A DNA stretch of 28,319 bases from an uncultured Lachnospiraceae bacterium. Its GTDB lineage: Bacteria > Bacillota > Clostridia > Lachnospirales > Lachnospiraceae. The position numbers and the translations under genes are program-made. Every line of letters begins with the position of its first letter. Positions within the stretch are counted from its first letter, which is position 1. Shown here piece after piece: positions 4,273 to 7,999 of this stretch. Location: positions 1 to 28,319 of the forward strand of contig CACYEU010000094.1 of assembly GCA_902773445.1 (NCBI GenBank), written 5' to 3'. The notes under the pieces were generated by a model. It made no database searches, was not told the origin of the DNA, and worked only from the letters and a program-made list of their open reading frames with translations.

Positions 4273-4275
4273 GTT

Positions 4276-4318
4276 AAAACCGCTGAACAAAGAGTTGTAT
4301 AAACTCAACGTTCAGCGG
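4276..4318 (-). terminator. Rho-independent terminator closing the double-cubane operon
   Basis: Stem CCGCTGAAC/GTTCAGCGG (4280-4288 with 4310-4318) with an inner GAGTT/AACTC stem, followed by TTTT on the minus strand. Confidence 0.75.
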
Positions 4319-4356
4319 CGGTGTTTTCGTCCGGTTATATTGTTGTTCCGGTAAAC

Positions 4357-5535
4357 CTAATTGGTCTGCGCCAGTTCACGGACTGCCGCAATGGCGCTGT
4401 CGACCTCTTCCTCTGTATTGAAATATGAGAAGGAAAAGCGCACAGCACCGCGGTCCGTCGTGCCGAGTGCTTCGTGCATACGCGGGGCGCAGTGCGCTCC
4501 TGCCCTTGTCGCGATATCATAATCCATTGCCAGAATGTCGGCGACTTCCGCTGAGTCGTAATCGCGGACATTGACCGCCACGATTGCGCCGCGTGCTTTC
4601 CAAGGGTCGCCGGCACACTGCCGAGGACCGTCCTCCTGTCCGAAATCACCGTAGACAGTTACGCCCTCTGTTTCCCGCATCGCCTCATAAAACCTGCGGG
4701 CAAGGTTTGCCTCATGTTCATGGATCGCCCCGACTCCGACACGGTTGATATAGTCAATTGCTGTGGAAAGTCCAGCGATCCCGTGCGCGTTCATTGTTCC
4801 GGCTTCGAGTCTCACCGGCATCTCAACCGGCTGTGTCTTCAGATAACTCTGAACTCCGGTTCCGCCGACTTTAAACGGTCTGACCGATATGCCGGGCATC
4901 ACGCAGATTCCTCCTGTGCCCTGCGGTCCGTAAAGACCTTTATGCCCGGTAAAACAGAGTACATCGATCTTATCGCGCTCCATATCGATCGGGATCGATC
5001 CGGCGCTCTGTGCGGCATCAACAATATAGAGCAGACCATGTTTGTGCGCGATCTGTCCGATCCTTGCAACATCAAGTCCGTTACCGGTCAGATTCGAGAC
5101 ATGCGTCGTCACGATCGCCTTGGTGTCCTTCCTGATCAGATTCTCCATTTCGCTGTAATTGATACGCCCGCAGTTGTCGGCGCGCGCAAATGAAAGGGAC
5201 ACGCCTCTTTCATTCTCCAGCCTGTACAGCGGCCGCAGCACCGAATTGTGCTCGAGATCCGTCGTGATCACATGATCTCCTTCATCGATCAGACCGTTGA
5301 TCACAATATTCAGGCTCTCCGTGACATTTGAAGTAAATACAACGCCGGTCTCGTCAGGACAGCCGAAAAAACGGGCTGTCTTAAGCCGCGCTTCATAGAT
5401 CGTCCGCGCGGCGTCAAGGCTTCCGCCGTGAACACCTCTTGCACTGTTGCCGATCGTGTGCATGGCTGTACAGACGGCGTCGATCACGCAGTCCGGCTTG
5501 TGAAGTGTTGTTGCTGCATTATCCAGATAAATCAT
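4357..5535 (-). CDS. Class V PLP aminotransferase, cysteine desulfurase/selenocysteine lyase family (group II-like; resembles the EF2568-type subfamily)
   Basis: MIYLDNAATT, DAAQSAG, PLP lysine in FTGHKGLYGP, catalytic Cys in TRAGAHCAP. Confidence 0.88.
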   Translation of the reverse strand: MIYLDNAATTLHKPDCVIDAVCTAMHTIGNSARGVHGGSLDAARTIYEARLKTARFFGCPDETGVVFTSNVTESLNIVINGLIDEGDHVITTDLEHNSVLRPLYRLENERGVSLSFARADNCGRINYSEMENLIRKDTKAIVTTHVSNLTGNGLDVARIGQIAHKHGLLYIVDAAQSAGSIPIDMERDKIDVLCFTGHKGLYGPQGTGGICVMPGISVRPFKVGGTGVQSYLKTQPVEMPVRLEAGTMNAHGIAGLSTAIDYINRVGVGAIHEHEANLARRFYEAMRETEGVTVYGDFGQEDGPRQCAGDPWKARGAIVAVNVRDYDSAEVADILAMDYDIATRAGAHCAPRMHEALGTTDRGAVRFSFSYFNTEEEVDSAIAAVRELAQTN

Positions 5536-5539
5536 AGTG

Positions 5540-6310
5540 TTACCTTTTTATCTTTTTTGCAAATGTTGCTGCTCCGATCGCGCCTGCATATCGGGCATCG
5601 GGATTTGTCTCGACCTCAGTTCCGAGTTCTTTTGACAGCGCTTTGCGAATGTATTCGCTGTCACAGAGTCCTCCTGTCAGCACGACCGGCTGCGCGCTCA
5701 TATTGACTCTGCCTGCCTGGGAACTGACTTTGCGGACGATTGAATCGACGACAGCGAACGCGATATTCTCTTTCGATTCACCTCTTCCGATCAGGCTGAT
5801 GACCTCTGACTCGGCAAAGACTGTGCACATCGACGAGATCGATGTATCGCTGCCGTTCGCCGCGAGCGCGGTCAGCTGATCAGGCGACACTGATAATGTA
5901 TTGGCCATGACTTCAAGGAAACGGCCGGTTCCCGCAGAACACTTATCATTCATCCAGAAGTTTCTGACCATGCCGCCGGCGACTTCGATGATCTTAGTAT
6001 CCTGACCTCCGATGTCTACGACTACCATATCACGATAACCGAATAATTCAATAGCCCCTGCGCAATGGCAGGTGATCTCCGTGATCGTTTTGTCAGCATA
6101 CGGAATCGAAACACGGCCGTATCCTGTCGCAACACAAGGATCCTCTCCGATCACATGGCCTGCATCGGCAAGCCTGACCCTGATATCATTGGCCGTGTCA
6201 ACACTGCTCCATCCGGTCGGGCAGACATCTTTGTAAACGATTGCTGAATTCTCATCGATGACGATCGTCTTAGCGCAGGTCGATCCGATGTCGATTCCGA
6301 TAAATCCCAT
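5540..6310 (-). CDS. ATP-dependent electron-transfer activase (BadF/BadG/HgdC family; DCCP reductase-like)
   Basis: ASKHA ATP motifs GIDIGST and VDIGGQD; [4Fe-4S] cysteines in NDKCSAGTG and SSMCTVFAESE. Confidence 0.92.
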   Translation of the reverse strand: MGFIGIDIGSTCAKTIVIDENSAIVYKDVCPTGWSSVDTANDIRVRLADAGHVIGEDPCVATGYGRVSIPYADKTITEITCHCAGAIELFGYRDMVVVDIGGQDTKIIEVAGGMVRNFWMNDKCSAGTGRFLEVMANTLSVSPDQLTALAANGSDTSISSMCTVFAESEVISLIGRGESKENIAFAVVDSIVRKVSSQAGRVNMSAQPVVLTGGLCDSEYIRKALSKELGTEVETNPDARYAGAIGAATFAKKIKR

Positions 6311-6335
6311 AGTATTTCTCCTGTCTACAGTAAAG

Positions 6336-6365
6336 CGGGCTGCCCCTCATCAGACGGACAGCCCG
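6336..6365 (-). other. Intra-operon GC-rich stem-loop between DUF3343 and the activase
   Basis: Minus strand CGGGCTGTCC-gtctgatgag-GGGCAGCCCG, 10 bp with one G.U pair, followed only by CTTTA. Confidence 0.6.
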
Positions 6366-6370
6366 TAAAA

Positions 6371-6646
6371 CTAACAGTACCGGTCGCGGTGTGGATTGAT
6401 CTGACCTTCCAGTGAGCGGACCGCGTGATAACGCGGCTTTTTTTCCTCGAGGACGCGCCTGACATCCCCGATATTCTCAGGTTCGATCATCAATGACATA
6501 CCGCAGGTCAATTCGCCCTGGATCGCGCGCGGCGCAGGAGCGATCCTGCTCGGGATCCCCTCTTCTTTCAAGAGCGCCTGCATCGCAAATCCGTGCGTAT
6601 TGGTGTCAAATAATATGTAGTATTTAAGATTATTCTTTTCCGGCAT
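6371..6646 (-). CDS. DUF3343 / putative Se/S carrier-like protein
   Basis: 91 aa with the family pattern YYILFDTNTHG...PAPRAI...TCGMSL. The start overlaps the upstream stop (TAATG). Ends in a C-terminal Cys. Confidence 0.75.
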   Translation of the reverse strand: MPEKNNLKYYILFDTNTHGFAMQALLKEEGIPSRIAPAPRAIQGELTCGMSLMIEPENIGDVRRVLEEKKPRYHAVRSLEGQINPHRDRYC

Positions 6647-7917
6647 TATCCGAGCATTTCAACAAACGCTTCGATACGTGTACGCAGCTGTTCCGCATCA
6701 GAATCCGCGTAGTCGGTCTCGATACCGAGAACCGGGATACCCGCCTCATTCAGAGCGCGCTCAACGTTGCGTCTCTCTGTGTCATACAGGCAGCAGAACT
6801 TCAGGTTTGTATCGATCACGCCGTCAACATTGTATTCCTTAGCAAGGCGGACAATATCATCGATGCGGGCATCGTTCGGGGTGAAGCATGCGCAGTTGTT
6901 CTTCATATAACGCTTGGACAGTGCCATGTACTGCTCATCGAGGCTGCCGAGGTCTTCTTCGACAAGATTCTCGAAATAGCGTGTGCCGGTGCACATCTCT
7001 TCACAGACAACCGCTGCACCGCTCGTCTCAATAATATGATGAAGCTTCCAGTTCGGAATTGCAAGCGGTGTACCGGTGAGCATGATTCTCTTTGTACCGG
7101 CCGGGAAGACCGAAACGCCGTCTTTGACTCTCTGCTCGCACTCGTCTGCAAGTTTGTTGGCCATCTCGGCGCAGCGTGCCGGATCGTCGAAGAACGCGAT
7201 CTGCATCACGAGAAGGGCATCCTTGCCGCTGATCGGGATCACGTCGCTCTTGCGTGTCTCATAAATGCGTGCGAGAGCTTTTCTCTTCTCGTTGATCGTA
7301 TGGATCGCCTCGTTGAGCTTCTCAACTGTGATCTTATTGCCGGTGAATTCCTCGACCTTTGCCGCAAAATCCTTGATCTCCTCAGCCCACTTCACGATGT
7401 CCTTCTCACGCTTCATCTGCGGAAGGTCCATGATATACATCGGAACATCTTCGCCGAGGATCTCATAAGCTTTTTTCTTTCCGTCGCAGGTCGTCTCACC
7501 GACATACATATCGGCGATTCTGAAGAACGGGCATGTTCTGTCGAGACGCGCGCCGACTGATGCTTTGATCAGCGGGCAGGTGCTCTTCGGAAGCACTTTC
7601 TCGCCGCCCTCTACCCAGAACTGAGAGCCGCCGCAAAGGCCGCTGACGATTCCGTCGGCCGCGATGACGACTTCATCGGGTACATAGACGCAGAAAGTAC
7701 CGAAAACTTTCCGGCCGTTCTTCTGAGCCTCGATCAGCTCTGACGGACGGATACCGTGGATATCAGCTACGACAAAGTCATAGAATCCCATGCCTTCCGG
7801 GCGGTTTTCCTGTGACAGATAAACATCTCCGAACGCTGTCGGAAGCACCTGGCAAAGGGCGTCATGCTTGTCAACATCCATGCCGAGATCAGTCCACATT
7901 TGTAAATTGTCAGCCAT
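6646..7917 (-). CDS. Double-cubane-cluster-containing anaerobic reductase (DCCP; 2-hydroxyacyl-CoA dehydratase superfamily)
   Basis: The N-terminal W..LG.D..KHD...NRP..M.F.D.VV.DIHGIR segment, the Cys motifs GTFCVYVP, GLCGG, TCPLIK, GETTCDGKKK, EEMC, NCACFTPN and KFC, and the C-terminal QLRTRIEAFVEM match my recollection of Carboxydothermus DCCP. AAGGAGG SD. Confidence 0.85.
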   Translation of the reverse strand: MADNLQMWTDLGMDVDKHDALCQVLPTAFGDVYLSQENRPEGMGFYDFVVADIHGIRPSELIEAQKNGRKVFGTFCVYVPDEVVIAADGIVSGLCGGSQFWVEGGEKVLPKSTCPLIKASVGARLDRTCPFFRIADMYVGETTCDGKKKAYEILGEDVPMYIMDLPQMKREKDIVKWAEEIKDFAAKVEEFTGNKITVEKLNEAIHTINEKRKALARIYETRKSDVIPISGKDALLVMQIAFFDDPARCAEMANKLADECEQRVKDGVSVFPAGTKRIMLTGTPLAIPNWKLHHIIETSGAAVVCEEMCTGTRYFENLVEEDLGSLDEQYMALSKRYMKNNCACFTPNDARIDDIVRLAKEYNVDGVIDTNLKFCCLYDTERRNVERALNEAGIPVLGIETDYADSDAEQLRTRIEAFVEMLG

Positions 7918-7970
7918 ATTTTTCCTCCTTGATTACCGTTAGCGAGTTTTACGTAAAAACAACTAAAAAT

Positions 7971-7999
7971 ATTCTACATGGCATATCAAGCCCGCGCAA
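7971..7999 (-). promoter_or_regulatory. Putative sigma-A promoter of the DCCP operon
   Basis: Minus strand TTGCGC-N17-TAGAAT, about 54 nt upstream of the ATG at 7917. Confidence 0.6.

Follow-up and report, generated by a model that had tools for sequence, protein, structure and literature searches.

A compact Lachnospiraceae operon linking a double-cubane cluster protein to a DUF3343 protein and a selenocysteine-lyase-like enzyme

Organization of the operon

The window analysed here is the whole 28,319-nucleotide stretch of an uncultured Lachnospiraceae genome, and the features of the locus are listed in Table 1. In the ORF listing, four minus-strand reading frames lie in a row and are predicted to encode a three-part double-cubane reductase system together with a PLP lyase. 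A preliminary description had proposed a four-gene operon, and the co-directional genes, their spacing and a strong terminator bear this out; its 1-nt overlap, 60-nt gap and 4-nt gap agree exactly with the listing. The overlap is between the stop of the double-cubane cluster protein (DCCP) gene and the start of the DUF3343 gene, which are translationally coupled.

Table 1. Features of the DCCP operon; positions are those of the window.
Feature	Position	Strand	Details
Putative sigma-70-type promoter	7971..7999	-	TTGCGC, 17 nt, TAGAAT; 53 nt upstream of DCCP start
Shine-Dalgarno AAGGAGG	7924..7930	-	Strong; 6 nt before DCCP ATG; read from sequence
Class-I double-cubane cluster protein (DCCP), 423 aa	6646..7917	-	NF040772, PF06050, PDB 6ENO
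DUF3343 / Se_S_carrier protein, 91 aa	6371..6646	-	PF11823, 60 bits against 25
GC-rich hairpin	6336..6365	-	Within 60-nt gap, DUF3343 to activase
HgdC-type electron-transfer ATPase (activase / DCCP-R), 256 aa	5540..6310	-	TIGR00241, 227 bits against 125; PF01869
Type-II (SufS/CsdB-like) PLP cysteine desulfurase / selenocysteine-lyase-like enzyme, 392 aa	4357..5535	-	
Intrinsic terminator	4275..4319	-	Extended hairpin then UUUU; 38 nt past lyase stop

The terminator, earlier placed at 4276-4318, is a hairpin at about 4279-4319 followed by UUUU; a 95-nt stretch containing it has a folding energy of -30.5 kcal/mol (z = -4.3; none of 200 shuffles is as stable), and it is absent from the calls of a simple scan because the hairpin loop is long. 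The 60-nt gap between the DUF3343 and activase genes also folds stably (-26.7 kcal/mol, z = -4.6, 0/200 shuffles as stable), and its hairpin is possibly an attenuator or an mRNA-stability element. The promoter proposed at 7971-7999 fares less well: both hexamers are readable and the -10 matches consensus at 5/6 positions, but the -35 is weak (3/6), the consensus promoter scan made no call there, and promoter-like sites occur in the region at chance level (6 found, 5.3 expected). A real promoter at this position is plausible, and would be a weak one.

The operon is neighboured by a divergent htpG and a YkuD/Bsp cell-wall gene. The preliminary description noted that it contains no selenium genes, and none are found across the whole 28-kb window. 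Contigs of bovine metatranscriptome libraries match the DCCP and lyase genes, and one of 151 nt spans the activase/lyase junction; these matches are weak evidence of operon expression.

Features of the encoded proteins

The first protein had been called DCCP-like, with a search against the DCCP family proposed as a check. It scores 498.3 bits on NF040772 (cut-off 350), with the same result in a whole-genome search, also matches PF06050, and aligns over its full length with PDB 6ENO (residues 2-422 against 2-421, E = 6.5e-138, one small gap). Class I proteins are about 420 aa long and have an N-terminal channel-closing region (PMC7317905); the alignment begins at residue 2, this region is present, and the window's protein has class-I architecture. 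Cysteines 76, 95, 114, 129, 144, 309, 342 (and 344) and 375 each have a cysteine counterpart in 6ENO, all but Cys344 are invariant across 18 DCCPs, and they comprise the [8Fe-9S] ligands and the extra conserved cysteine near the channel shared by classes I and II. With an HgdC-type ATPase partner (TIGR00241) in the same operon, the protein is by sequence a genuine class-I DCCP, predicted to carry the double-cubane cluster. No other HGD-D family gene was found in the 88%-complete assembly. A role as an ordinary 2-hydroxyacyl-CoA dehydratase subunit was considered and rejected, as there is no alpha/beta pair and the HadC score is 120.6 bits (cut-off 700); grouping with such subunits is not seen.

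The family calls made earlier for the three remaining proteins also stand, each scoring above its model's cut-off (PF11823, TIGR00241 and TIGR01977). The DUF3343 protein, a predicted selenium or sulfur carrier, falls in the subfamily encoded directly downstream of DCCP. P37, P39, C48 and G49 are invariant across 47 DUF3343 sequences, and Cys48, in a CG motif, corresponds to the conserved cysteine already pointed out by Lin 2015. The AF2 model has a ferredoxin-like alpha/beta fold, with low confidence in the tail (residues 81-91). This C-terminal tail, INPHRDRYC, is conserved and here ends in Cys91, but its last residue varies between Cys, Leu and Ile; the terminal Cys is clade-specific, being present in 45/65 nearest loci and in 4/22 of a class-wide sample.

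The activase matches PDB 1HUX (E = 4.7e-54) and DCCP-R, 7YYL_E (E = 1.7e-42). The lyase scores 421 bits on TIGR01977 (cut-off 377) and belongs, with predicted activity, to the selenocysteine-lyase (EF2568/SclA) family, whose founding member SclA prefers selenocysteine over cysteine. It falls below the SclA model itself (NF040779, 345.6 bits against 525), and its best solved relatives are SufS-type desulfurases; the translation includes FTGHKG and the catalytic-Cys motif RAGAHCA. In the lyase tree it is placed in a clade (SH-aLRT 96-99) in which each of the 17 other members is DCCP-linked, apart from the TIGR01977 proteins of SelD-negative genomes and from the second TIGR01977 copy of its own genome, which lies on contig C114 beside a Mo-cofactor-binding gene.

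Neighbourhoods and selenium genes in relatives

The genomic context was surveyed at the 80 nearest DCCP loci, from at least five phyla and including 45 with full flanks, as the preliminary description had suggested; the lyase, YedF and SelD genes were counted when co-directional and within 8 kb of DCCP. A DUF3343 gene lies immediately 3' of DCCP in 64/80 loci and in 40 of the 45 with full flanks, with no more than 30 nt between the two genes in 34 of 49 cases, and in an even sample of Clostridia it is downstream of 20 of 21 class-I DCCPs. Neighbouring genes encode a TIGR01977 lyase at 32 of the 80 loci, YedF at 20 and SelD at 12; of the 45 loci with full flanks, 27 show one or more of the three. 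Clusters of the selD-yedF-DUF3343-Sec-lyase type are recognisable in 39/80 loci, and the same gene set sits inside the selD-yedF operons of many unrelated anaerobes. DCCP and its sulfur/selenium partner genes occur in 26 distinct gene orders in at least five phyla, and the gene labels in two of the loci (L098 and L100) are upheld by curated models. The conserved pairing of DCCP with DUF3343, activase and TIGR01977 lyase far exceeds chance expectation. An adjacent DUF3343 gene is absent for the more distant class-I DCCPs of Chloroflexota, Actinomycetota and Desulfotomaculum, and selenium genes are missing from the vicinity of many class-II DCCP loci.

Among 399 Clostridia genomes, 67 SelD-positive and 332 SelD-negative, all 32 with DCCP also have SelD, DCCP occurs in 0/332 SelD-negative genomes, and 35/67 SelD-positive genomes are without DCCP. 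The TIGR01977 family as a whole is not selenium-specific, being present in 250 of the 399. The source genome encodes selD(Sec), selA, yedE and yedF on contigs other than the operon's (selD on C214, yedF on C128), and no selD-linked selenium cluster, with selD and/or yedF in the string, is present in the 28-kb window. The association had been offered as a new lead, but the link of DCCP to SelD is already in Haft's 2022 preprint, whose 955/970 agrees with the 32/32 here, and the neighbours are in a 2015 STRING table. The preprint also reports nine methanogens with DCCP but without SelD, and a correlation of DCCP with the SAO locus and Stickland selenoproteins; DUF3343 also occurs in SelD-lacking organisms (Lin 2015).

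Proposed roles and comparison with known systems

Our best reading, held tentatively, is that the system uses ATP to release carrier-bound selenium reductively, as selenide destined for SelD. The module would be a reductive selenium-mobilisation route feeding the selenophosphate synthetase SelD, here encoded in trans, in which DCCP is the catalytic protein and the HgdC-type ATPase supplies it with ATP-energised electrons. The lyase would take selenium off free L-selenocysteine as an enzyme-bound perselenide and hand it to the invariant Cys48 of DUF3343, whose conserved tail would dock on DCCP; the ATPase-charged double cubane would then reduce the carrier-bound Se(0), as a Cys-S-Se or S-Se-S species, to selenide. 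If the Se(0)/selenide couple is strongly negative, this would explain the need for an ATP-driven reductant. This is, in its selenium form, the second option of the preliminary description, in which a carrier-bound sulfur or selenium species is the reductase substrate. The first option, a dedicated sulfide-bridge maturation argued from the lack of selenium genes in the operon, is less favoured because relatives carry the same genes in selD-yedF operons, the lyase belongs to a DCCP-linked clade, the genome has its own selD(Sec), selA, yedE and yedF, and every DCCP-carrying genome of the sample is SelD-positive.

Thiol reductants and NifS-like enzymes supply SelD without any such system, and more than half of the SelD-positive genomes lack DCCP, so that the proposed route is accessory at best. 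The occurrence of DCCP as a subset of SelD fits equally well with DCCP being a client of SelD, for example with selenium in its cluster. We also note, as points against selenium release, the nine SelD-less methanogens, the broad distribution of TIGR01977, the clade-specific terminal Cys of DUF3343, and the absence of selD and yedF next to the operon in the window.

Cofactor maturation in a wider form, the earlier first option as extended by Haft, we regard as rather unlikely. Here the lyase and DUF3343 would provide the double cubane with its bridging mu2 atom, either sulfide or a selenide/selenophosphate-derived selenium ([8Fe-8S-Se], a formal possibility named by Haft), and the selenium pathway would have DCCP as its client. 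In favour are the usual role of cysteine desulfurases in feeding Fe-S assembly, the 1:1 coupling of DUF3343 to DCCP, and a 399-genome sample without any DCCP outside SelD-positive genomes. Translational coupling and stoichiometric placement are nevertheless more in keeping with a subunit or substrate carrier than with a catalytic maturase, and the distant class-I DCCPs are without an adjacent DUF3343. In addition, the cluster in the solved Carboxydothermus hydrogenoformans DCCP is a complete [8Fe-9S] unit with a sulfide bridge, and the protein reduces acetylene, azide and hydrazine, so neither assembly nor this activity requires selenium; this protein was reportedly made recombinantly without these partners, which also counts against maturation. 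The specific version in which the lyase, DUF3343 and SelD install a mu2-selenide bridge in this lineage is less probable still, but would explain the absence of DCCP where SelD is lacking and, if true, would add a new iron-sulfur cofactor that contains selenium, and a fourth use for selenophosphate.

Alternatively, the substrate of DCCP could be an unrelated small molecule, reduced in an anaerobic pathway that relies on selenoenzymes as well, with DUF3343 a structural or gating subunit docking by its tail, and the clustering with selD and yedF reflecting co-regulation and not shared chemistry. The correlation with the SAO locus and Stickland selenoproteins agrees with this, as do the class-II loci lacking nearby selenium genes, and a conserved tail with a variable last residue suits a docking peptide. 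We think it rather unlikely, as the same sulfur- and selenium-trafficking families recur beside DCCP in so many gene orders and phyla, a specific lyase clade tracks DCCP, and the invariant DUF3343 cysteine points to chalcogen chemistry over pure scaffolding.

In a sulfur counterpart of selenium release, the lyase would act as a cysteine desulfurase and DCCP would act on a DUF3343 persulfide, reductively freeing sulfide for use in a thio-cofactor or Fe-S pathway, consistent with TIGR01977 in many SelD-negative genomes, DUF3343 in SelD-lacking organisms and the methanogens with DCCP alone. It seems very unlikely, since ordinary thiols would readily reduce persulfides and make an ATP-driven reductant unnecessary, no SelD-negative genome of the sample has DCCP, and the window's lyase lies in a clade linked to selenium clusters. 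Chance adjacency, to which the unrelated flanking genes and the lack of selD and yedF in the window might point, has a negligible likelihood and is already contradicted by the survey: with one to three copies per 2-3 Mb genome, a gene should lie within 8 kb of a given gene in about 1% of cases, and 51% (lyase) and 89% (DUF3343) are observed in full-flank loci.

The compact operon of this rumen/gut Clostridia genome joins an ATP-driven double-cubane reductase to a small cysteine carrier and a selenocysteine-lyase-like enzyme, and the recurrence of this gene set within selD/yedF operons offers a testable lead that such reductases may act in selenium handling. Among the closest known systems is the C. 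hydrogenoformans DCCP/DCCP-R pair (PDB 6ENO, 7YYL; Jeoung and Dobbek), with a DCCP that matches over its full length, every cluster cysteine aligned, and an HgdC-type ATPase partner whose window counterpart matches 7YYL_E. The window adds a coupled DUF3343 gene between DCCP and ATPase and a TIGR01977 lyase gene behind the ATPase, partners that are unmentioned in the DCCP literature examined. E. coli K-12 yjiM-yjiL-ytiA similarly has a DCCP family protein, an activase and a PF11823 small protein (YtiA) in one string, and the E. coli control genome matches both NF040772 and PF11823. YjiM, however, is of the shorter class-II type (PMC7317905) and 34% identical to the class-I protein of the window, the order is DCCP-activase-DUF3343 rather than DCCP-DUF3343-activase-lyase, no lyase is adjacent, and YtiA is without the NPxRDRYC tail.

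The selD-yedF-DUF3343-Sec-lyase clusters of Lin et al. 2015 (e.g. Slackia heliotrinireducens Shel_25420-25470) contain the same families, whereas the window has the DCCP-DUF3343-activase-lyase core only, with selD, yedF and yedE on other contigs. In their STRING table, YedF and DUF3343 already have an activase and a '2-hydroxyglutaryl-CoA dehydratase subunit' as partners; the dehydratase-like genes, listed before DCCPs were recognised, drew no comment. Enterococcus faecalis SclA (EF2568) shares the TIGR01977 family and the group-II RxGxHCA motif with the window's lyase, which is below the SclA-specific model (346 against 525) and adjoins a DCCP operon, whereas SclA neighbours selD, xdh, yqeB and yqeC, with no DCCP; the copy on C114 is closer to the SclA context. 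Lastly, the 2-hydroxyacyl-CoA dehydratases and class-I benzoyl-CoA reductases (HgdAB/HgdC, HadBC/HadI, BzdNOPQ) share the HGD-D superfamily fold and the ATP-driven 'archerase' principle of electron injection, but the window has a single HGD-D gene in place of an alpha/beta pair, with the full DCCP cysteine set and scores far below the cut-offs of their models (HadC, 121 bits against 700; BzdN, 104 against 454).

Organization of the operon and identity of its reductase

The operon comprises four head-to-tail genes transcribed leftwards, coding for a double-cubane cluster protein (DCCP), a small Cys protein of the DUF3343 family, an activase, and a PLP-dependent lyase, and the ORF listing agrees with the 1-nt overlap, 60-nt gap, and 4-nt gap between them in the preliminary description. 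The terminator proposed there holds as an extended hairpin followed by UUUU past the last gene (fold z = -4.3 vs shuffles); the promoter is weak and putative, with a good -10 element (TAGAAT) but a -35 element matching at only 3/6 positions. A consensus scan does not call it, and by that scan the region is not enriched in promoter-like sites. A strong ribosome binding site lies upstream of the DCCP gene. Within the gap between the DUF3343 and activase genes, the GC-rich RNA folds into a highly stable hairpin (z = -4.6) that is not followed by a clear U-run, and this may reduce expression of activase and lyase below that of DCCP and DUF3343. Metatranscriptome contigs on the operon are few and short, with one bridging the activase/lyase junction, and may reflect DNA carry-over.

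The flanking genes are unrelated, and include a divergent htpG, SHMT, HtrA, and cell-envelope polysaccharide genes on one side, and a YkuD/Bsp protein and an adenylation enzyme on the other. The runs whose DNA contains the stretch are bovine and gut metagenomes. The locus is a minimal version of about 3.6 kb, without other genes, from a rumen/gut Clostridia MAG, and such a four-gene unit would be convenient for heterologous reconstitution.

Coordinates of the operon genes and of related features in the same genome and in fetched loci
Feature	Location	Strand	Details
DCCP	6646-7917	minus	423 aa; NF040772 498 bits vs cut-off 350
DUF3343 'Se/S carrier'	6371-6646	minus	91 aa; PF11823
Hairpin in DUF3343/activase gap	6336-6365	minus
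Activase, acyl-CoA-dehydratase type	5540-6310	minus	256 aa; TIGR00241
Class-V PLP enzyme (lyase)	4357-5535	minus	392 aa; TIGR01977
selD, same genome	contig C214, L001:1393-2466	minus	one in-frame TGA
Second TIGR01977 copy, same genome	contig C114, L081:449-4116		459 bits
Long ORF with activase-type ATPase domain, same genome	C96:2900-7186		~1,400 aa
PP-loop/TIGR01977-like fusion, one Clostridia genus	L064:8513-10354; L066:4638-6482; L067:4752-6665		613-637 aa
Short HGD-D-like ORF, several loci	L069-L073 (about 6045-6839); also L120, L134, L143, L145		244-264 aa

On sequence grounds, the reductase is a genuine DCCP. It aligns with the crystal structure of the Carboxydothermus hydrogenoformans DCCP (6ENO) over residues 2 to 422 (E = 6.5e-138) with all cluster-motif Cys in register, and eight Cys are invariant across 18 aligned DCCPs, E. 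coli YjiM among them. Its scores with the models for subunits of hydroxyacyl-CoA dehydratase and of benzoyl-CoA reductase are far below cut-off, and no second HGD-D gene is present in the operon or the assembly (genome 88% complete). Together, these decide for DCCP the question posed in the preliminary description, whether the protein groups with ordinary dehydratase subunits. The seven-Cys motif printed by Haft (CX19CX18-19CX29CX166-170CX32-34CX32C), used as a regular expression, does not match the window DCCP, because its spacings differ slightly from those of 6ENO and the window (X18, X18, X29, X164, X32, X32); direct alignment was used instead, and the motif cysteines themselves are all conserved.

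The activase is a standard archerase, matching 1HUX (4.7e-54) and DCCP-R (7YYL_E, 1.7e-42). Although it has a single HGD-D family gene, the genome codes elsewhere for another archerase-like protein, a very long ORF with an activase-type ATPase domain. In several of the fetched loci, the activase and class I DCCP genes are separated by a short, divergent HGD-D-like ORF.

Gene neighborhoods of DCCP

The surroundings of DCCP were surveyed in two independent samples, an even set of 399 Clostridia genomes and the 80 closest DCCP loci of GTDB species representatives. DCCP scores above cut-off in 32/399 Clostridia genomes, and in no other genome of the family to which the window belongs (12 further genomes within that sample). 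When 7 kb per side was fetched for all 45 DCCP genes in these genomes and the neighboring ORFs clustered, the recurrent neighbors were activase (34 loci), DUF3343 (27), TIGR01977-like (10), YedF (4), and SelD (3); DUF3343 directly follows 20 of the 21 long class I-like DCCPs.

The 80 closest loci code for DCCPs with 50-82% identity to that of the window, and derive from Lachnospiraceae, Oscillospiraceae, Eggerthellaceae, Synergistota, Syntrophomonadaceae, Tissierellia, Chloroflexota, Actinomycetota, Thermodesulfobacteriota, and one WOR-3 MAG. Co-directional genes within 8 kb were counted with local HMMs, whose labels agree with curated models at two test loci, both for all loci and for the 45 with at least 5 kb of flank on both sides. 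DUF3343 is immediately downstream of DCCP in 64/80 loci (40/45 with full flanks), and activase (58/80; 37/45), a TIGR01977-type lyase (32/80; 23/45), YedF (20/80; 11/45), and SelD (12/80; 10/45) are nearby, with at least one of the last three at 27 of the 45 full-flank loci. One or more of lyase, YedF, and SelD accompany DCCP at 39 loci, which come from five or more phyla and show 26 different arrangements of these genes. Nine loci share the commonest arrangement, lyase-DCCP-DUF3343-activase, and that of the window has a single other instance, at locus L100 of a goat-rumen MAG, where yedF and a second DUF3343 gene lie upstream. With one to three copies of each family per 2-3 Mb genome, chance proximity is expected at about 1%. 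The grouping of DCCP with DUF3343 and lyase recurs in both samples.

Natural fusions among DCCP, DUF3343, activase, lyase, YedF, and SelD are absent from 145 loci. One Clostridia genus codes, upstream of DCCP-DUF3343-activase, for a Dph6-like PP-loop ATPase (SGGKDS motif) fused to a TIGR01977-like domain, which is an alternative attachment of a desulfurase-type enzyme to the DCCP operon.

Selenium genes, the lyase, and the small Cys protein

SelD is present in 67/399 Clostridia genomes, including all 32 with DCCP, and DCCP is found in none of the 332 SelD-negative genomes; at the genus level, DCCP is found in 22 genera, all of them among the 43 (of 217 sampled) that have SelD. This independently reproduces the pattern in Haft's 2022 preprint, where SelD is present in 955/970 DCCP genomes. 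The window's own genome, a MAG of 1.5 Mb that is fragmented into 276 contigs and 88% complete, carries SelD, SelA, YedE, YedF, and a second DUF3343 on contigs outside the window. Its selD adjoins rho and has a single in-frame TGA, as do most SelD genes of the Clostridia sample, and so codes for a selenocysteine-containing SelD. The yedE gene is split over two contig ends (C27 and C15), with a small SirA/TusA-like gene after it on C15; that contig also holds genes for a LysR-type regulator and for another member of the sulfur-transport family. From the absence of selenium genes between promoter and terminator, the preliminary description derived two options, sulfide maturation and action on a carrier-bound S/Se species; the argument from absence for maturation is not supported, whereas DCCP identity and the conserved partner linkage are. 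Relatives keep the same gene set within selD operons and the genome has its own selenium genes, so the window operon is a detached core, and the missing genes are no evidence for a sulfur-only role.

The TIGR01977 family, founded by EF2568/SclA, is present in 250/399 genomes and is thus not selenium-specific as a whole; the window's lyase scores 346 with the SclA-specific model, under the cut-off of 525. In a tree of 61 TIGR01977 members, it falls in a clade (SH-aLRT 96-99) whose remaining members are all DCCP-linked, with copies from SelD-negative genomes and the second copy of its own genome outside, and the 'unlinked' copies on the selenium side of the tree adjoin yedF and DUF3343. That second copy adjoins ThiF-family and molybdopterin-cofactor-binding (xanthine-dehydrogenase-type) genes, as has been described for SclA of E. 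faecalis and for selenium-dependent molybdenum hydroxylases. SclA prefers selenocysteine, with cysteine as a competitive inhibitor.

The DUF3343 copies that follow DCCP are a subfamily apart from those beside lyase or YedF, with a consensus that differs over the whole domain. P37, P39, C48, and G49 are invariant, and the window's subclade has a conserved C-terminal tail, NPxRD(R/K)(Y/F)C. Of the DCCP-following copies, 45/65 end in this Cys, vs 1/16 in the other subfamily, but only 4/22 do so in a class-wide sample, where Leu, Ile, or another residue is frequent at the tail end; the terminal Cys is therefore not a universal selenium-carrying residue. With C48 invariant and the terminal Cys variable, Cys48 is the likely chalcogen carrier, and the tail, which carries an additional Cys in the window's clade, is read as serving in docking or gating. 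An AlphaFold2 model from 47 sequences (mean pLDDT 81) shows a ferredoxin-like beta-alpha-beta fold; confidence is low for the tail (81-91). A PDB sequence search with DUF3343 gives no match, and Foldseek of the model against the PDB returns only generic ferredoxin-like folds (PII, ACT, S6; E above 0.005, TM 0.54 or less), which leaves a TusA-like assignment unsupported. The DCCP stop lies within 30 nt of the DUF3343 start in 34/49 loci, with overlap in 14, and this close coupling suggests production in equimolar amounts. Complex prediction for DCCP with DUF3343 gives a score of 0.02, which counts neither for nor against binding.

Proposed selenide supply and relation to known systems

Double-cubane reductases, discovered in 2018, spend ATP to carry out reductions of the nitrogenase type at very low potential. 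Gene-neighborhood evidence joins the question of their natural substrate to that of how selenide is supplied to SelD in anaerobes, for which no dedicated selenium reductase or carrier is known to have been demonstrated: the Cys protein is nearly always coupled to class I DCCP, and the lyase clade, YedF, and SelD recur beside it. This evidence makes DCCP function directly testable.

The operon unites a class I DCCP and its ATPase with a tightly coupled Cys protein and a selenium-clade lyase, a set conserved with selD and yedF, and DCCP is restricted to SelD-positive genomes. We tentatively favor, at somewhat less than even odds, a lyase-DUF3343-DCCP route in which carrier-bound selenium is reduced to selenide for SelD. 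The lyase would take selenium from selenocysteine as a perselenide and pass it to DUF3343, and the ATPase-charged DCCP would turn the carrier-bound Se(0) into selenide. A strongly negative potential of the Se(0)/selenide couple would account for the need of an ATP-driven reductant. The DCCP system is dispensable for SelD, as 35/67 SelD-positive genomes are without DCCP, and would be an accessory or salvage route. If DCCP does release selenide in this way, selenium assimilation would gain a new enzymatic step, and DUF3343 and E. coli YtiA/YjiM would gain a function.

The main alternative reverses the direction, with the Se/S chain serving DCCP by installing its bridging atom, as suggested in the preliminary description and as a formal possibility in Haft's preprint. 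The phyletic pattern fits this as well as it fits selenide release, but the C. hydrogenoformans DCCP is sulfide-bridged and active, which argues that selenium is not required. We consider the reversed direction unlikely. An unrelated substrate, with DUF3343 merely a subunit, is similarly doubtful. A reductase of carrier persulfide, using sulfur only, is improbable.

The selenium link of DCCP is already partly published. Jeoung and Dobbek described DCCP and DCCP-R and stated the physiological function as unknown, and Haft's 2022 preprint, in which the NF040772 model was made, already notes that DCCP co-occurs with SelD; the words desulfurase and carrier are absent from it. A role of DUF3343 as Se/S chaperone was put forward by Lin et al. 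(2015), whose STRING table for Slackia places an activase and a 'hydroxyglutaryl-CoA dehydratase subunit' beside YedF, DUF3343, and Sec lyase, uncommented. Our literature search turned up no paper that connects DCCP with YtiA or DUF3343. E. coli K-12 has a yjiM-yjiL-ytiA string, in which YjiM is a class II DCCP and the 85-aa YtiA is a PF11823 protein, so the triad of DCCP, activase, and DUF3343 reaches the Proteobacteria. The locus is a compact variant of the DCCP/DCCP-R system with conserved, putative selenium-trafficking partners, and is not new in kind.
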